64,000 nucleotides of DNA from an uncultured Acidimicrobiia bacterium (GTDB taxonomy: Bacteria > Acidobacteriota > Terriglobia > Versatilivoradales > Versatilivoraceae): the NCBI GenBank assembly GCA_963786955.1, contig CAWBAT010000005.1, forward strand, positions 768,001 to 832,000, in the 5' to 3' direction. The notes under the pieces are model-generated. The model was given only the letters and a program-made list of their open reading frames with translations. It was not told the origin of the DNA and searched no databases. Shown piece by piece: positions 3,102 to 38,780 of the stretch. A program made the translations under genes and the position numbers. Positions within the stretch are counted from its first letter, which is position 1. Each line of letters opens with the position of its first letter.

Positions 3102-3262
3102 GAGGGATTGGTCGAGGACAAGTGGTGAGTACTGGGCAATCTATCGAAGCTGCCCATTTGATACTGGGCTGACTGGCCGGCCACTCAAAAAAGGCCGGCC
3201 GAAGTTAAGGTGCCATGAGCGCTAACTTTAAAGTTCTGTCGCGAACTTGCATACAGAAAAGC

Positions 3263-3401
3263 GAAACGCCGCGGGACGGCGCCAAGAACACAATAGCAGC
3301 AGAACCTGAGGCCGCCGGAGTGCTTTCAACAATGTCTTTGGGTACTTCGTCGGCAGTCACGATTAGCTGTACCTTGGCGATCTTTGCGTTCCTGGCGTTT
3401 C
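3263..3401. mobile_element. 9-mer-arm element copy (MITE-like), 139 bp
   Basis: Degenerate left arm GAAACGCCGCGGGACGGCGCCAAG (3263-3286); right arm CTTGGCGAT CTTTGCGTT CCTGGCGTT TC (3373-3401). Confidence 0.65.
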
Positions 3402-3432
3402 CATCAGCCGATTAAGCGCTGTCTCAAGCGAG

Positions 3433-3651
3433 TCAGGAATGAATCGCGGCAGCAATGATGATACAAATGCCTAGCGACATCGCTCCAACTACAATGGCGA
3501 GAGCCGTATTATGCTCCTCAATAATTTCCTTCCACAGGTGATAGGGCGTTAGTTTGTCTATCAAGACAAATGAAACCCAGAAAATAAAGATCCCCAGAAC
3601 AGAAAAGACAACCGCATTCAATACGAAACCAAAATTGATCAGTCCGCTCAC
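3433..3651 (-). CDS. DUF350 (YjfL-like) small membrane protein
   Basis: IDKLTPYHLWKEIIEEHNTALAIVVGAMSLGICIIIAAAIH; GGAGG upstream of GTG at 3651. Confidence 0.85.
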   Translation of the reverse strand: MSGLINFGFVLNAVVFSVLGIFIFWVSFVLIDKLTPYHLWKEIIEEHNTALAIVVGAMSLGICIIIAAAIHS

Positions 3652-8919: not shown

Positions 8920-8970
8920 GGTCGAACCCTGAAGAACTGAGTTTCTTCGCGGGTGGACCCCAAAAAGATG

Positions 8971-9031
8971 GAAACGCCAAGAACGCTAAGATCGCCAAGT
9001 TTCCGCCGCTTTTCTTGGGCCTTGGCGTTTC
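8971..9031. mobile_element. 9-mer-arm element copy, 61 bp
   Basis: GAAACGCCAAG AACGCTAAG ATCGCCAAG ... CTTGGGC CTTGGCGTTTC, lying between convergent genes. Confidence 0.7.
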
Positions 9032-9065
9032 GGTTTATTTACAACTAGGGACACAGGGCTGCGCC

Positions 9066-14536: not shown

Positions 14537-14724
14537 GTGACCCTCCGGGCTGATGATTTGATGGGATGGCGAGAAGTTCGAGTTGGAACGAGAAAACTAA
14601 CATTAACACAAACTCCTCATGAATATTCAATTCATCGGGCGGTGAGATGAAAAAAATTCAGAACTGATTACCCAACGAGACGGCACGAGAAATATCAAAA
14701 AACATGAGTAAGCTGGAAAGATTT

Positions 14725-14861
14725 GAACCGCTAAGATCGCCAAGAAAAGCAACGAAAACTCATCTCCAGTGAAATTTCATTCCTGCATATCCAAGAGTTC
14801 CCCAATGAAGCTTTAACCCCAATGTTTTTACTCTTGGCGCACTTGGCGTTCTTGGCGTTTC
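14725..14861. mobile_element. 9-mer-arm element copy, 137 bp
   Basis: GAACCGCTAAG ATCGCCAAG ... CTTGGCGCA CTTGGCGTT CTTGGCGTT TC; spacer homologous to the copy at 20027-20163. Confidence 0.75.
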
Positions 14862-14870
14862 TGAATCTCT

Positions 14871-14979
14871 CTAGTACAAACTTGCAGAATTCTGTGTTGC
14901 AGTTGGCCCCGCTATTTAAGCCCGGGGTCAACGACCCCAGCTACAACAATTGCCGCGAATTTGTGCAATTTAGTACTAG
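14871..14979. repeat. CTAGTAC-ended inverted-repeat element enclosing a GTAG REP-like hairpin
   Basis: Imperfect TIR CTAGTACAAACTTGCAGAATTC / GAATTTGTGCAATTTAGTACTAG; internal GGGGTC-AAC-GACCCCAGCTAC. Confidence 0.55.
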
Positions 14980-19955: not shown

Positions 19956-20026
19956 TTCACCGCAACGCGCTTGATTTTTTTGAGTTGGTCCCCCCCTACT
20001 CCCCTTCCCTTAGCCCCCTGTTGAAA

Positions 20027-20163
20027 GAAACGCCAGGAACGCAAAGACCGCCAAGAATCAATGCATTAGAGCCAACACCTTGCTGAGATTGTTTTTGGAT
20101 GAATAGGATTGAATTGCGTTGGAGATGAGTTTCAGTTGCTTTCCTTGGCGTCCTTGGCGGTTT
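20027..20163. mobile_element. 9-mer-arm element copy, 137 bp (inverted relative to 14725-14861)
   Basis: GAAACGCCAGG AACGCAAAG ACCGCCAAG ... CTTGGCGTC CTTGGCGGTTT. Confidence 0.75.
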
Positions 20164-20227
20164 ATATTTTTGTTGGGCCGAACAAATGGAAGAAATGCAA
20201 AGGCCGTCATGTCCTCCGAGAAAACAC

Positions 20228-23766: not shown

Positions 23767-24658
23767 ATGAGACCAATCTCTAGGCGACAGTTTGCTACCC
23801 AACTCACTATGGCCACAGGGAGCATGGCATTGCCCCTTCATCTGGCATGGGCACAGAAGGCACCGAGTTCGATGGTCGATGGTGTCCAACTGGGTGTCCA
23901 AAGTTATAGCTTTCGCGATCGGGACTTTGAACAAGCCATCAAAGCGATTGTAGAAGTGGGCATTAACAGTTGTGAACTCTGGAGCGGGCATTTGGAACCG
24001 CAGGGACTCGGGCCTGACAAGCTCCGCCGCTGGCGATTGGAAACTCCGTTGTCCTACTTTGAGAATGCCGGGCAGAAACTTCGAAACGCAGGGATTCAGT
24101 TGAACGCTTATAACTACAGCTTTAGAAAAGAAATGTCGGAGCGAAGAACTCCAACGTGGATTTCAGATGACCCAGCGCGCTAGGAGCCCCATCCATTACT
24201 GCCTCATCCAACCCGAGTATGGCCAAGCGGATAGACGAGTATGCCTCAGAAATTCAAAATGCGAGTCGGCATGCACAACCACGCTCAGGGAGGAAAAGGA
24301 GATGAATACGATGGGCCAAAGGACTTTGCGGCTGCCATGACTGGAAGCTCACTCTACATTTGCATCAATCTCGATATCGGGCATTTTGTGGCCGCCGGAT
24401 TTGATCCCGTGGATTTTATTGATCAGCACCACGCCCGAATCGTGACGCTGCACATCAAGGATCGCAAGAAGAATCTTGGCGTGAGACTCCCCGACTTTAA
24501 AATTCGGTACCGGCGACACGCCCATCCGGGAAGTCCTTTTACTCCTCAAGAAGAAGCAATACAAGATTCCTGCCAACATCGAGCACGAGATCGATGGTCA
24601 ACCTTCTCTCGAAGGAGTGAGAGAATCGCTCGATTACTGCAAGAAAGCACTCGCTTAA
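23767..24658 (+). CDS. Tat-exported sugar phosphate isomerase/epimerase (TIM barrel), frameshifted
   Basis: SRRQF signal, GVQSYSFRD, VGMHNH, NLDIGHF, LHIKD. Confidence 0.8.
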
Positions 24659-24726
24659 GAGTGGCGAACAGGCCATTGAATATGTCGGCTATTGCACTCC
24701 CCTTTAGCCTTCACTCGTAAAGATTT

Positions 24727-24902
24727 GAACCGCCAAGAAAAGCTAAAAAGGCTGAAGCTGTCACTTACGACTTCGGCTCCAGCTCACTTCTTTCAGGCCA
24801 ATTTGAGATCCGACTTATCCAAACAAAAGGGTTTCAGTAAGGTCCTTGCCTTCAGTCTTTCTTTCTTGGCACACTTTGCGTCCTTGGCGTTCTTAGCGAT
24901 TC
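24727..24902. mobile_element. 9-mer-arm element copy, 176 bp
   Basis: GAACCGCCAAG ... CTTGGCACA CTTTGCGTC CTTGGCGTT CTTAGCGAT TC; same AAAGATTT prefix as the 14725 copy. Confidence 0.7.
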
Positions 24903-24930
24903 CTTCATTTGTTTGGCCCAATAAAGACTA

Positions 24931-25219
24931 GAACCGCCAAGAGCGCCAAGAAAAGGGTCGAAAACCTGGACCCCCTGGCCCATTAGTCCTATTGGTCGAA
25001 TGGCCCTTCCCGATGATTTCTGAGAACTCGCTGGATGCCGTCGCGCACGGGGTGCGCGCCTTACTACAGCGACCACCGCTTCCCCCTCCTTAGCTAAGGA
25101 GGGGAACCAAAATTGAGTTCGTTCACAACTTCCTCCACTGGAGGGGAATTGAGGTAGGTCCGCTTCTTCATTCGCCCCAAGAATTCCGGCTTGGGGGAAC
25201 TTTGCGTCCTTGGCGTTTC
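24931..25219. mobile_element. 9-mer-arm element retaining the 3' end of a GxxExxY gene plus an inserted palindrome
   Basis: Arms GAACCGCCAAG AGCGCCAAG / CTTGGGGGAA CTTTGCGTC CTTGGCGTTTC. 25029-25047 is identical to 27403-27421. Minus strand reads RDGIQRVLRNHREGPFDQ*. Confidence 0.8.
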
Positions 25220-25379
25220 GATCTTTTGAGATACTTGGGAACAACAATGATTCAATCTTGAGTGGATGTTCATAAGCAAACGTCACATGCTAGGCATTTC
25301 ACGCATTTCGCCGTTTCATGAACAGTGAGAACGGCTTCCCCGCAAGATTTGACAATAGGTTGGGAGAGCATCTTTCCGT

Positions 25380-25988
25380 TTACTTCGACACAAAGGAATT
25401 CCCTTTAATATAAAACCTCCATGATTTTGAAAGCCACGGCTCTGGTGTCTTGCCGAGTCCGATCCGAGGAGAAGCGATGATCTCTCTGTCATCGGGTTTT
25501 ACTCCGGGTTCGATCCTGAGCGAAGATGCTTTCTCACAAAAATCTAAACCATTTTCAGCTTTTTGGATGGCCATCGCCTGAGTGAGACGACCGGGGCCCT
25601 TGCAGAGCAGCGAAATCTCGTTCATTCCACGCAAATGGCGCATGACCTCGATTCCTTCGATGGGTTCAACGGCTCGAATGAGGACCGCTGCCGGAAACCC
25701 TTCCTTCTCTGCCACGACGTTTAGCATCCAATGCATCCCATAAGTAAAGTAAACGTAAGCAAAGCCGGGAGGCCCATACATGATTTCCGTTCTCTTTGTC
25801 CGGCCAGCTTTAGCATGACAGGCGAGGTCCTCTTCCCCTCGATACGCCTCTGCTTCAACAATTCTGCCCGAGAGCCGAGTCCCATTCGATTGCCGGACCA
25901 GCAGACACCCAAGCAAATCGCGAGCCACAACTTCTGTGCGGCGCAGGAAGAAGGAGCGTGGTATTGAAGTTTGTGAATTCCGTCTCAT
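25380..25988 (-). CDS. mpg: DNA-3-methyladenine glycosylase (MPG/AAG type)
   Basis: VARDLLG, GRIVEAEAY, YVYFTYGMH, AVLIRAVEP, GPGRL, PRIG. Confidence 0.92.
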   Translation of the reverse strand: MRRNSQTSIPRSFFLRRTEVVARDLLGCLLVRQSNGTRLSGRIVEAEAYRGEEDLACHAKAGRTKRTEIMYGPPGFAYVYFTYGMHWMLNVVAEKEGFPAAVLIRAVEPIEGIEVMRHLRGMNEISLLCKGPGRLTQAMAIQKAENGLDFCEKASSLRIEPGVKPDDREIIASPRIGLGKTPEPWLSKSWRFYIKGNSFVSK

Positions 25989-26028
25989 CGTTCAGCCGTT
26001 TGGGAAGACCGACCTTCTTTGAGAATAC

Positions 26029-27066
26029 TTACTCTACCCAGTCCGCTATGAAAACGTTTGTTTCTCCCCGTACTTTTCCATTTCGGTTGGAAGCAAACAC
26101 GAGTTTCTTGCCGTCGGGAGAGAACATGGGGAAGCCGTCAAAAGTTTCATTGAAAGTAATCTGCTCGAGTCCCGAGCCATCCAGGCTAATCAGGAACAAA
26201 TCAAAGTTCCTGCCCTTAGGGTCTTGGACATTTGACGAGAAGATGATCTTCCTTCCGCTGGGATGAAAAAAAGGACAAAAAGTTGCTGCATGAAACGAGG
26301 TGATTTGAGTGGAGTGAGAGCCGTCCGCATCCATGACAAATAGCTCCAATTCCCGAGGCTCGATCAGATTTTGGGCTAGCAACTCTTTGTAATGAGCCAG
26401 AGCTTTTTCGTCGGCTGGATGATGAGCCCGATAGACGATCTTTTGGCTATCCGGAGAGAAGAAAGCACCCCCGTCGTACCCGGGTGTCCGTGTCAGGCGG
26501 CGAACATCCGTACCATCCGTCTTCATAGAATAGAGTTCCAGATCTCCATCCCGAACGGAGGTAAAGACAATTCTTTTCCCATCCGGGGAAATCGTTGCCT
26601 CGGCATCATAGCCGGGGGTTGTCGTGAGTCGCTTTAATTTTCCGCTGAGATCGGAAAGAAAAATGTCGTAATCCTTCTCAAGGGACCAGACATAACCGCG
26701 GGAATAATCCGGCTTGGGTGGGCAAGCCTCTCCTCCCAAGTGGGTTGAGGAATAAATAAAATGCTGCCCGTCTGGAAGGAAGTAAGAACAAGTCGTTCGC
26801 CCTTTCCCTGTGCTGACCCGGTGGACGTCACTGCCATCACCATTCATGATGTAGATCTGATCACAGGGCCACTCGCCGCGGGTGGATTGAAAGATTAATT
26901 TCTTTCCATCAAACGAGAAATAAGCCTCCGCGTTTTCGCCACCAAATGTCAATTGACGGATGTTCTTAAGGTGTTTCTCAGGGCTGGATAATTCTTGAGC
27001 AGCAGGCTTCATCGAAAAGAAAGCGACCGGGAATAGAAGAGCAAGTATCAGTTGGCGAATAGTCAT
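26029..27066 (-). CDS. TolB-like PD40 beta-propeller protein, secreted
   Basis: QLTFGGENAEAYFS, GYDAEATISPDG, FDGFPMFSPDG, TNVFIADW. Confidence 0.85.
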   Translation of the reverse strand: MTIRQLILALLFPVAFFSMKPAAQELSSPEKHLKNIRQLTFGGENAEAYFSFDGKKLIFQSTRGEWPCDQIYIMNGDGSDVHRVSTGKGRTTCSYFLPDGQHFIYSSTHLGGEACPPKPDYSRGYVWSLEKDYDIFLSDLSGKLKRLTTTPGYDAEATISPDGKRIVFTSVRDGDLELYSMKTDGTDVRRLTRTPGYDGGAFFSPDSQKIVYRAHHPADEKALAHYKELLAQNLIEPRELELFVMDADGSHSTQITSFHAATFCPFFHPSGRKIIFSSNVQDPKGRNFDLFLISLDGSGLEQITFNETFDGFPMFSPDGKKLVFASNRNGKVRGETNVFIADWVE

Positions 27067-27300
27067 GGCAGGGAAGTTTTTAACGGGGGAAAATGCGGAC
27101 GAGACGCCTGCGCCCCCGGTTTGATTCATCGAATTGAAAATGGCTCCATAAACTCCGTGCGACAGAGTTATTATACATCCAGCAACCCTTTATACTGACT
27201 ACTGCGAACGTGCAAAGGTTTGCGGAAATTGCCGTAGCCGAGCACGTTGACCAATGCGCGCTAACTTTATAAGGCTTTCCTCGCCTGCCGCAGGAAGAAC

Positions 27301-27802
27301 GAAACGCCAAGAGCGCCAAGTACACCAAGAAAAGGGGATACACCTCGGTCAGCGGCCTGATCTTAACCTACCCGTAGTTCTTCAGGATGCTTTCTGGCTA
27401 CCCGCTGGATGCCGTCGCGCAACAAAATCGCGTTCCAATTGATGATCAACCCCAAAGACAAGCCGCTCAATTTCAAGTATGTCAGCAACTGAGCGAGGTG
27501 GATGGGGAGAACTTTTTCGACCGTCTGGTTTTCCACCAACACCAATTGGTCGATTCGCATGTCGATGCGGCAACCGACCTCAATAAGCACCCCTGCAAAC
27601 TCTAGCGGAAAAGCGACTTGGCATTCGACCTGGTGGCGACGTCTTTGGAGCTCTTGTGCCAGACAAGCCTGATAGGCCGATTCCAGCAGCCCGGGCCCCA
27701 AGGCGCGAGGCACCCTGAGTACAGCGTAACAATATCCTGAGCTACTTCGTCGGCGGACATGAAGGCTCCAACTCTTGGCGAACTTTGCGTTCTTGGCGTT
27801 TC
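27301..27802. mobile_element. GxxExxY cassette flanked by inverted 9-mer-array arms (putative full-length element)
   Basis: Left arm GAAACGCCAAG AGCGCCAAG TACACCAAG A; right arm reverse complement GAAACGCCAAG AACGCAAAG TTCGCCAAG A. Confidence 0.75.
27363..27760 (-). CDS. GxxExxY protein (PD-(D/E)XK-like nuclease family); 1-bp frameshift near 27728 and atypical residues, possibly decayed
   Basis: LGPGLLESAYQACL, RIDM, LVE, HLAQLLTYLKLSGLSLGLIINW, DGIQRV. Likely start MSADEVAQDIV after GGAG. Confidence 0.85.
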
Positions 27803-27955
27803 CCAATTCTGGGCCTCATCTGCTCAACCGAGGATCCCCGAATGAACCCATCATCCAAGCTTTGGTTAGCACTTATGGGTTGTTGACCCTGGCCGACCCC
27901 AGAGGAGCCATGGATGACACGATCTTCTGATACTTAGGATTGGCTCCAACCTGCG

Positions 27956-29320
27956 TCAGCCGGTCACAGCCCGGATGCTCTCGTATGTGGCTTCGAGTAA
28001 TTCACTCAGCTGTTTCTTCGTGATGCTGAGCGGTGGCATGATGACGATCACATCCCCTAAGGGACGAAGAATAACACCCCTTTGGCGGGCCTCCAAGATC
28101 ACTTGGTGGCCAACACGCGCATTTGAGGGATAGGGAGTGCGCTGCTTCTTGTCTCGGACCAGCTCAATCCCTACGATGAAACCGGCTTGCCTAATATCTC
28201 CCACATGAGGAAGCATCTCAAACGCTTTGAGCTGATTTGAAAGATAGCGGATTTTAGGTTGGAGGCGACGTAATGTTCTCTCCTCTCGAAATATCCGCAG
28301 GTTCGCGAGTGCGGCGGCACACGCCACCGGGTTACCGGTATAGGTGTGGCCGTGAAAAAAGGACTTAAACTCCGAATGCTCCCCCAGGAAGCCATCAAAG
28401 ATCTCCTCAGTGGTCAGCGTCGCAGCTAATGGCAAGATACCTCCGCTGAGTCCTTTGGCGAGAGCTAAAAAATCCGGACGGACTTTTTCACGCTCGCAGG
28501 CAAACATCGTCCCAGTCCGTCCAAAGCCTGTTGCCACTTCATCCAGAATCAGATGAACCTGGTATTTCCGGCATTCTCTTTCAATCTGTTTCAAAAACCC
28601 CGGCGGCATGGTCAGCATTCCGGCAGCCCCTTGGATGGCGGGTTCAACGACGACCGCACAGACTTCCTGGTGATGAGCTTGCAGGGTTTCTCTAAAATCC
28701 TTGAAGCAATAAATGTCGCACGAATGCACTTCCTTCCCGAAGGGGCAACGATAACAAGACGGGTAGAAGGATTTGATCGAATGAAACAACAAGGGCTTGA
28801 ACATCTTGTGGAATAGGTCAACCCCGCCCAAACTCACCGAGCCAAGAGTGTCTCCGTGGTAGGCATTGGTAAAGGAAACAAAGGTGCGTTTTCGCGAATG
28901 GGCCTTTCCTTTTTGCCTCCAATATTGGAACGACATCTTCAGTGCCACTTCCACTGCCGTTGAGCCATCATCCGAATAAAATACTCTGGAAAGATTCGCT
29001 GGTGCGAATCGCAACAGTGCTTCTGCCAGTTCGATGGCAGGAATGTTCGACAGTCCGAGAAAGGTGCTGTGATCTAGTCGGCTGACTTGTTTTCGAACTG
29101 CTTGAATCAGGGTGGGATGACGATGGCCGTGAATATTAGCCCACAACGAGGAAACGCCATCCATGTATTTCTTTCCTTGGACGTCGTAGAGATATACGCC
29201 TTTAGCTCGTTCAATCACGAGCTGAGGGGCATTCTGCCATTCCCTCATTTGAGTGAAGGGATGCCACAAGTGAGACTTGTCAGCAGATTCGTAATCTTTA
29301 GGGGTGCGTTTGGATTTCAT
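27956..29320 (-). CDS. bioA: Adenosylmethionine-8-amino-7-oxononanoate aminotransferase
   Basis: LWHPFTQM, DGVSSLW, SDDGSTAVEVALKM, DEVATGFGRTG, FFHGHTYTGNP. Confidence 0.95.
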   Translation of the reverse strand: MKSKRTPKDYESADKSHLWHPFTQMREWQNAPQLVIERAKGVYLYDVQGKKYMDGVSSLWANIHGHRHPTLIQAVRKQVSRLDHSTFLGLSNIPAIELAEALLRFAPANLSRVFYSDDGSTAVEVALKMSFQYWRQKGKAHSRKRTFVSFTNAYHGDTLGSVSLGGVDLFHKMFKPLLFHSIKSFYPSCYRCPFGKEVHSCDIYCFKDFRETLQAHHQEVCAVVVEPAIQGAAGMLTMPPGFLKQIERECRKYQVHLILDEVATGFGRTGTMFACEREKVRPDFLALAKGLSGGILPLAATLTTEEIFDGFLGEHSEFKSFFHGHTYTGNPVACAAALANLRIFREERTLRRLQPKIRYLSNQLKAFEMLPHVGDIRQAGFIVGIELVRDKKQRTPYPSNARVGHQVILEARQRGVILRPLGDVIVIMPPLSITKKQLSELLEATYESIRAVTG

Positions 29321-30357: not shown

Positions 30358-30447
<90 letters not shown>

Positions 30448-38677: not shown

Positions 38678-38686
38678 CTCCAGAAG

Positions 38687-38772
38687 CAGAAAGCAGAAGG
38701 CAGTTGGCAGAAAGCAGTCAATGAGAAAGATCTACTCCTTCCTGCTTGCTGCCAACTGCCTTCTGCTTTCTG
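38687..38772. repeat. Heptamer-array hairpin (31-bp arms, 1 mismatch)
   Basis: CAGAAAG CAGAAGG CAGTTGG CAGAAAG CAG - 24 nt - CTGCTTG CTGCCAA CTGCCTT CTGCTTT CTG. Confidence 0.75.
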
Positions 38773-38780
38773 TTGCTGAT

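Follow-up and report, generated by a model that had tools for sequence, protein, structure and literature searches.

What is the element at positions 24931-25219 of the bacterial DNA analysed here, which is bounded by two inverted arms, resembles in part the end of a GxxExxY gene and encodes nothing? The DNA (the window) comprises 64,000 nucleotides (nt), positions 768,001 to 832,000 of contig CAWBAT010000005.1 of assembly GCA_963786955.1. The element, designated E6, is very probably a dead, non-autonomous relic of a hairpin-bounded GxxExxY cassette, a small selfish element that carries a gene of the TIGR04256/PF13366 family. In the layout of this cassette, two arms composed of tandem 9-nt units, in inverted orientation, enclose the gene. 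The genome that holds the window, G000, has a size of 5.65 Mb in 9 contigs (the C-labels used below), and was compared mainly with its sister genome, G002.

The similarity of E6 is to a full-length cassette of the same window (E7, 27254-27876, minus strand), a member of a group of copies named family A. Positions 25029-25047 are identical to 27403-27421 (19 of 19, E 1.7e-6 among seven elements of the window), and the ungapped match extends to 25006-25047 against 27380-27421, with 83% identity over 42 nt (window repeat family D6). The identical segment is located 98 nt from the left arm in E6 (counted from 24931) and 102 nt from the left arm in E7 (counted from 27301). Both left arms are directly followed by AAAAGGG, and the minus strands read RDGIQRVLRNHREGPFDQ (24989-25045) and RDGIQRVARKHPEELRVG (27363-27419), respectively. 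These features had been reported in a first-pass annotation of the window made from the letters alone and were reproduced without change, as was the perfect 22-base pair (bp) palindrome at 25083-25104 (22 of 22 in an opposite-strand self-match). The alignment of 24931-25060 with the full copy, proposed there as a check, gave a similarity above chance. A profile hidden Markov model of family A, built from five full-length copies (three from G000 and two from G002), aligned the left 117 nt of E6 (24931-25047, comprising the arm, the 3' untranslated region (UTR) and the last 18 codons) collinearly to its positions 65-185, with E 1.7e-8 genome-wide. In the whole G000 genome, 25006-25047 matched six family copies at 81-86% identity (E 3e-6 to 2e-3). 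At the protein level the remnant was not significant (tblastn E 8.6), and the evidence for the homology of E6 therefore lies at the nucleotide level. The arm motif, two CGCCAAG cores spaced 9 nt apart, was present 19 times in the window against 0.39 expected, a number reached in none of 100 shuffles.

The left arm of E6 (24923-24955, plus strand) consists of two 9-nt units with the core CGCCAAG, followed by AAAAG, lies on the 3' side of the former gene and aligns with profile positions 65-97. Its closest match is the arm of an 'empty' copy at 14717-14759 (84% over 43 nt). Next to it are the equivalent of the 3' UTR (24956-24988, minus strand), which is weakly conserved and corresponds to a low-confidence stretch of the nhmmer alignment, and the remnant of the 3' end of the GxxExxY gene (24989-25047, minus strand), with 18 codons and the stop in frame over 24989-25045. 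Everything further upstream in the gene, the GxxExxY motif included, is missing. Positions 24930-25047 are also collinear with a divergent derivative at C8:397298-397414 (69% identity, over 120 nt). The right arm (25194-25225, minus strand), on the 5' side of the former gene, has three units, the innermost of which is degenerate; its positions 25197-25219 show 95.7% identity over 23 nt to 27780-27802 of E7, and a weak match to profile positions 540-568 was obtained. The two ends of E6 thus align with separate parts of a gene-bearing parent (24931-25047 with 65-185, the right arm with 540-568), as in a derivation by internal deletion. The arms pair with each other in the minimum-energy fold. 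Next to the right arm, on its inner side, a spacer (25154-25193, no strand assigned) forms a short hairpin in the fold and has no significant match genome-wide or to the family A profile, and in neither comparison was a remnant of the 5' end of the gene found there. An open reading frame (ORF) across the relic, 24852-25286, gave no TIGR04256 or PF13366 hit; E6 is a gene fragment and not a member protein. It is the sole copy in G000 with part of the 3' coding end and without the 5' coding part.

The locus is not an artefact of assembly. Logan contigs of three metagenome runs bridge E6 and its internal junction at 25047/25048: a contig of 1243 nt from run X1 covers 24300-25481, one of 354 nt from run X2 covers 24855-25205 and one of 750 nt from run X3 covers 24485-25225. 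Each differs from the window by 11-26 substitutions and 3-6 small gaps, indicating that they stem from near relatives and not from the same assembly; the three runs may share one campaign, and their independence of one another is incomplete. An assembly chimera of G000, the objection foreseen in the first-pass annotation, is excluded by this bridging.

The interior of E6 was found to be occupied by an unrelated dispersed repeat, R2. Positions 25035-25153 are part of this repeat, which has about 45 matching places in G000; 32 loci were aligned, that of E6 included (31 others). The partial copy in E6 (25048-25153, plus strand) is devoid of about 35 nt at its left end and holds the 22-bp palindrome, which belongs to R2. 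Matches to R2 begin at 25035 or 25039 and the family A alignment stops at 25047; the 13 nt in common (25035-25047, no strand assigned) agree with the gene sequence at 13 of 13 positions and with most R2 copies at 11 of 13. Since R2 abuts the gene remnant at this microhomology, the gene was not merely deleted, and the joint replaced it with R2 sequence. R2 itself is a multi-hairpin repeat whose left module exists in two alternative versions; the right module is common to both and contains a Shine-Dalgarno-like palindrome. Besides the copy in E6, it is located at C5:566137-566254, at C6:977799-977899 and at about 30 more places in G000, and it is also present in G002, G003, G010 and G011.

The full-length cassette E7 has terminal repeats at 27254-27265 and 27865-27876 and arms at 27301-27330 and 27774-27802. 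Homology among family A copies spans 27237-27893, past the arms on both sides; the arms are internal, 35-62 nt from the element ends and close around the ORF. The gene body of E7 occupies 27363-27725, with the ancestral ATG at 27760 in another frame, and the gene is probably a pseudogene. The ORF 27363-27806 scored 102.4 bits against TIGR04256 (cut-off 35) and 100.1 bits against PF13366 (cut-off 22). This ORF, the longest of E7 (minus strand), starts at a TTG within the right arm, which is read as ...NAKNAKFAK..., so that annotated GxxExxY proteins can appear to have N-terminal extensions that are in fact arm repeats. G000 contains four long copies of family A, namely E7, C4:154750 (C4_154), C6:452418 (C6_452) and C8:196387 (C8_196), and judged by their sequences all four look dead. 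E7 and C4_154 have in common a 1-nt deletion, which leaves the ATG out of frame, and the changes K79Q, H18P and H36Q at nearly invariant columns; C6_452 carries a 2-nt insertion; and in C8_196 the 5' part is replaced and a stop codon is present. An intact reading frame with the conserved D...ExK is therefore not found in E7. G002 holds two intact GxxExxY genes of 132 amino acids with D67, E77 and K79. In total, 22 loci of G000 had one or more family A profile hits at E <=1e-3, and the genome contains at least 13 internal-deletion derivatives plus arm-only copies. One derivative, E1 (3199-3444, minus strand; repeat family D7), has kept its left terminal repeat (3215-3226), the arm pair and the initial codons of the gene, matches profile positions 2-95 and 471-612, and constitutes the mirror case of E6.

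The ends of family A are 12-nt inverted repeats (ATGAGCGCTAAC and variants), which in G000 occur in such a context in family A only. E7 is flanked by a 13-bp target duplication, identified by flank comparison (27241-27253 on the left, 27877-27889 on the right; no strand assigned), and at the orthologous site of G002 a single uninterrupted target copy is located within a repeat named R3. The target is a GC-rich palindrome (GGGNCNNNGNCCC), usually within R3. In nine copies with both ends, the 13-nt flanks matched at 13/13, 12/13, 12/13, 11/13, 10/13, 10/13, 9/13, 9/13 and 8/13 positions, and their central triplet agreed directly, not as the reverse complement, in 6-7 of the nine. The 13-mers differ between copies but match within a copy, which argues for fresh staggered cuts. 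On this comparison of flanks and ends, family A is evidently a cassette that moves, has defined termini and duplicates 13 bp of a palindromic target. In the G000 genome, these terminal repeats were not found on any larger element. R3 is a palindromic repeat of about 110 nt, similar to miniature inverted-repeat transposable elements (MITEs), with its own terminal inverted repeats; copies are located at 14871-14979 of the window and at C3:333000, C5:1685572, C6:918477, C7:45301 and C7:85278, intact copies occur elsewhere in G000, and R3 is the preferred landing site of the family A cassettes.

Five G000 copies occupy sites that are empty in G002 (E7, C4_154, C4_533, C7_47 and C8_332), where the flanking DNA is 85-92% identical to that of G000. 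At the empty sites corresponding to C4_533 and C7_47, the alignments of the two flanks have 13 and 14 nt in common, respectively. At C4_154 and C8_332 G002 is without both R3 and the cassette; R3 itself therefore appears mobile. One deletion is common to C4_533 and C7_47 and another to C6_874 and C6_1065, the loci being unrelated, while E7 and C4_154, which share the 1-nt frameshift and the K-to-Q change, are both at sites empty in G002. Dead or deleted copies at such sites indicate that they reached new sites after the species split, unless five precise losses took place in G002, and copies already deleted or frameshifted were evidently mobilised in trans. Three G002 copies are orthologous to G000 copies and in differing states: G002 is full-length, with intact genes of 132 amino acids, at the loci orthologous to the remnant C3:335482-335797 and to the derivative C6_874, and has a deleted copy orthologous to the longer C8_196. 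Copies evidently also decay in place, by internal deletion mediated by short repeats. The G002 sites of C6_452 and C6_1065 are rearranged or have other content and were uninformative; the more distant genome G001 is short at the C6_452 site (89 nt vs 821 nt).

With these data, several statements of the first-pass annotation had to be adjusted. It described E6 as an intermediate between the gene-bearing cassette and the empty copies, with the rest of the gene replaced by other sequence. E6 is indeed a gene-less derivative of a GxxExxY cassette, with order, spacing and orientation kept, and the gene is replaced, but the other sequence is a left-truncated R2 and the change is not a simple deletion. 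E6 is not of the sub-lineage of the full copy at 27254-27876: it has the arm pair and neither the outer 12-nt terminal repeats nor the R3-type flanks of family A, whereas family A derivatives have both arms and outer repeats. These absences, together with an arm nearest to 14717-14759, mark E6 as an old, diverged member. Nor does the mobile unit run from arm to arm, that of E7 being the larger 27254-27876 between the 13-bp duplications. The proposal that arms and gene travel together is borne out by the family A copies and the G002 comparison; E6, regarded there as the best evidence for it, is the weakest of at least 13 derivatives, and the copies with shared deletions and the orthologous pairs in G002 are cleaner.

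The only gene of the cassette encodes a protein of about 130 amino acids, for which structural modelling supports no more specific assignment than a PD-(D/E)XK nuclease fold. For the intact G002 protein, the model had a predicted local distance difference test (pLDDT) score of 93.5, and its best neighbours in VIA-align were all restriction-endonuclease-like, Cas4 or Hjc proteins, with Z 6-8, a range that is middling by the tool's own scale. In the PDB, Foldseek found nothing at E <=0.001 (best, Cas4 SSO0001, 1.6e-3), and by sequence no solved structure was matched at E <=0.01. Residues D67, E77 and K79 are conserved in the GxxExxY family alignment. In the accessible text of a 2012 survey of the superfamily, the function of PF13366 is listed as 'Unknown' (PMC3424549), and that of another paper names GxxExxY merely as a domain adjoining a reverse transcriptase gene. 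No description of the cassette architecture was found in the searchable literature, subscription journals and database family notes being outside that scope.

Arms around GxxExxY genes are not restricted to G000. TIGR04256 was detected in 22 of 61 genomes sampled across the phylum, with the most matches (14) in G000. Inverted repeats between the 160-nt flanks of GxxExxY genes were scored, with windows shifted by 900 nt as controls. In the phylum sample, repeats of >=24 bits were found at 17 of 26 genes and at 0 of 51 shifted controls (the 26 loci are 30 minus two from G000, one from an unpublished genome and one with too-short flanks). Among records labelled as several phyla, the corresponding numbers were 56 of 80 genes and 2 of 151 shifted windows at >=24 bits, and 41 of 80 and 0 of 151 at >=30 bits. 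All these figures rest on thresholds picked after the scores were seen and on loci related to a single query. The taxon labels of the nearest named records disagree, with Terriglobia or Acidobacteria for several and another class for two; the taxon is probably Acidobacteriota. The period of about 9 nt of the arm units was judged by eye, and the unit sequence varies between sub-families.

Within the window, inverted arm pairs are located at 8970-9033, 14714-14861, 20022-20162, 24719-24901, 24931-25219 (E6), 27301-27802 (E7) and near 3262-3405 (E1). In the smallest copies (14703-14870 and 20014-20171) similarity stops at the arms, and the G002 site of 20014-20171 has 252 nt of unalignable sequence, with no arms. 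Directly to the left of E6 is E5 (24719-24901, no strand assigned), an arm pair without a recognisable gene remnant. E6 is flanked by protein-coding genes, a sugar-phosphate-isomerase-like ORF and a methylpurine glycosylase, and the genes 24241-24720 and 25380-25988 converge around it; E7 is flanked by bioA and a TolB-like gene. The block 24668-25295 (about 628 nt), to which both E5 and E6 belong, is missing from G002 at the orthologous site and is hence dispensable there. The G001 site orthologous to 24660-25380 (L003 2394-2900) contains a partial arm and an arm pair that encloses about 200 nt.

Other arm families were observed in G000. At 38681-38778 of the window, a 37-nt inverted repeat, 92% complementary, with 24 nt between its arms and short periodic units, may be an 'empty' hairpin of another arm family. 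Dense clusters of other families, with different 9-nt unit sequences, are present at C3:238600-260900 and C5:242900-265400; one cluster surrounds an intact paralogue (C3:250961-251281), whose flanking arms are direct, not inverted. At C9:233412-233756, a second GxxExxY gene with the same upstream arm lies directly downstream, forming a tandem cassette pair. A genome-wide search for the arm motif with 2 mismatches gave 207 hits, merged into 179 arms, which include chance matches in coding DNA and were not used for counts.

Other origins of the locus were weighed against its interpretation as a cassette relic. A chance match or an assembly chimera, with nothing at 24931-25219 descending from a GxxExxY cassette, could be invoked on the basis of the non-significant tblastn match of the remnant and of the repeat-rich, metagenome-assembled genome from which the window comes; it deserves hardly any credence beside the collinear profile alignment of arm, UTR and gene end, the six independent copies at 81-86% and the contigs of three runs that span all junctions. 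E6 might also be a recombinant, in which gene conversion or template switching brought a family A patch (25006-25047) into an 'empty' element of the 14703-14870 type, without a whole gene ever having been present at this place. Such an origin would suit a left arm nearest to an 'empty' copy, a 42-nt core that is 81-86% like family A while the intervening UTR is poorly conserved, and an R2 junction showing that microhomology-mediated joining took place at E6. It is nonetheless unlikely, given that order, orientation and arm distance are cassette-like, that the profile alignment covers the entire 117 nt, that the C8 derivative is collinear over 120 nt and that a graded deletion series is common in G000. 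The whole-element folds are not unusually stable (z -2.3 for E6 and -0.7 for E7), no Rfam family matches the element, the E5/E6 block is dispensable in G002, and the end of similarity at the arms in the smallest copies suggests that there the arms are the ends. These results make it rather unlikely that the arms are mainly an RNA device, as in the intervening sequences of 23S ribosomal RNA (rRNA), with a stem around the ORF cut by RNase III and the relic kept for host use, e.g., 3'-end processing between convergent genes. In its favour, the minimum-energy folds of E6 and E7 both have the arms paired, the arms of family A are internal and hug the ORF and so need not be transposition ends, and the Coxiella intervening sequence, in the accessible text of PMC4990558, has the same layout. 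At gathering thresholds, Rfam found in the window a transfer RNA alone (30358-30444), and a promoter and terminator scan of 24200-28100 yielded nothing above shuffled expectation. In Coxiella, according to the same text, a stem carries an ORF in its loop, short tandem repeats precede this ORF, deletions affect it and RNase III excises the element; the intervening sequence is regarded there as selfish and horizontally acquired, with an ORF of unknown function (PMC4990558). As far as that text goes, the 23S rRNA intervening sequences (with an S23p four-helix-bundle ORF, in Coxiella and Leptospira) are the closest described layout to the cassette. The cassettes differ in being located between protein-coding genes and not in a 23S rRNA helix, in having a PF13366 ORF and in showing DNA-level insertion with target duplication.

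Among DNA elements, integron-type gene cassettes and repetitive extragenic palindromic (REP) elements, for which a tyrosine recombinase or a Y1 transposase would be supplied from another locus, have in common with the present copies the hairpin-forming repeats, the promoterless small ORFs and the many gene-less copies. The outer repeat may also end in a sequence that loosely resembles an integron core site. That the arm-bounded units belong to either kind is highly improbable. No integron integrase was found above the cut-off in G000 (the best TIGR02249 match is partial, with 190 bits against 265; it covers positions 1-146 of 315 at C4:289913-290350, a locus unrelated to the cassettes). The copies form no arrays but lie singly, at scattered places among housekeeping genes, the arms flank the gene and are not both 3' of it, and the enclosed ORF is solely PDDEXK_3/GxxExxY in Pfam and NCBIfam, with no REP-associated tyrosine transposase (RAYT). 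To our knowledge, a 13-bp target duplication is a feature of neither integron cassettes nor REP/RAYT systems. In REP/RAYT systems (REPINs), one small gene is likewise located between inverted hairpin-forming repeats, with many gene-less copies in the genome; in the cassettes, however, the gene is not a Y1 transposase (RAYT), the arms are tandem 9-nt units and not REP palindromes, and the target is duplicated. In free-standing or intron-borne homing endonuclease genes of the PD-(D/E)XK type (e.g., I-Ssp6803I), too, the selfish element has a small nuclease as its single gene and a specific palindromic site as its target. Such elements are copied by repair during homing, without target duplication, and the cassettes differ from them in their 13-mer duplications. 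MITEs share with the cassettes the short gene-less copies, the terminal inverted repeats, the target duplication, the intergenic location, the origin by internal deletion of a gene-bearing parent and the movement in trans. The cassette parent, in contrast, is without a DDE, serine or tyrosine transposase and its sole gene encodes a PD-(D/E)XK protein of about 130 amino acids, the duplication is of 13 bp in a palindromic target, the conserved arms of family A are internal, and the relic 24931-25219 shows neither outer repeats nor a definable duplication.

For E6 as a cassette relic, the following course of events is proposed. The relic would have arisen from a gene-bearing copy via deletion or template switch at the microhomology, and the insertion of R2 would have preceded or accompanied this step, in an order of events that we infer. 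The encoded nuclease may make a staggered cut at the palindromic target and so drive insertion, and the arms may be binding sites of the nuclease or, in the RNA, form a stem that encloses the ORF in the manner of rRNA intervening sequences. Several observations weigh against this interpretation. Flank pairs taken across copies average 8.4/13 matches, against 9.5/13 within the 11 scored copies; the targets resemble one another, and the case for a duplication thus comes mainly from the best copies and the empty sites. Those empty sites could in principle be precise losses in G002. All four long G000 copies of family A look dead, by frameshifts, a stop or the changes K79Q, H18P and H36Q, yet dead copies moved. 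We know of no transposase mechanism that can be named for a 13-bp duplication together with a stand-alone small PD-(D/E)XK enzyme. For the E5/E6 block (24668-25295) no target duplication could be defined, the G002 flank alignments ending at 24667, resuming at 25296 and overlapping weakly, by about 32 nt. At the orthologous site of the more distant G001, a separate arm pair is present, which has nothing but the arms in common with E5 and E6; its presence is compatible both with an old element that G002 lost and with recurrent insertion at a preferred site. The history of E6 itself (deletion, R2 insertion and order of events) and the role of the nuclease in mobility are likewise what we infer.

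On a wider scale, small mobile elements of an undescribed class, spread over several phyla, may have GxxExxY genes as their autonomous form; in them the nuclease would cut the target with a 13-nt stagger, recognise the arms and spread MITE-like relics. This extension is proposed tentatively and considered possible at best.

E6 alone is ordinary decay debris, and its value is that of one rung of a ladder that leads from the intact gene through the frameshifted copy and the internal deletions to arm-only hairpins. The ladder, together with the filled and empty orthologous sites, indicates that a widespread protein family of unknown function is carried by a mobile cassette whose ends and target are defined. 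The system to which E6 belongs is an uncharacterised kind of small mobile cassette. It accounts for a class of hairpin repeats between the genes of these genomes, which pipelines may annotate as spurious short ORFs, and it makes the function of GxxExxY proteins testable, through cutting of the palindromic target and binding of the 9-nt arm units.

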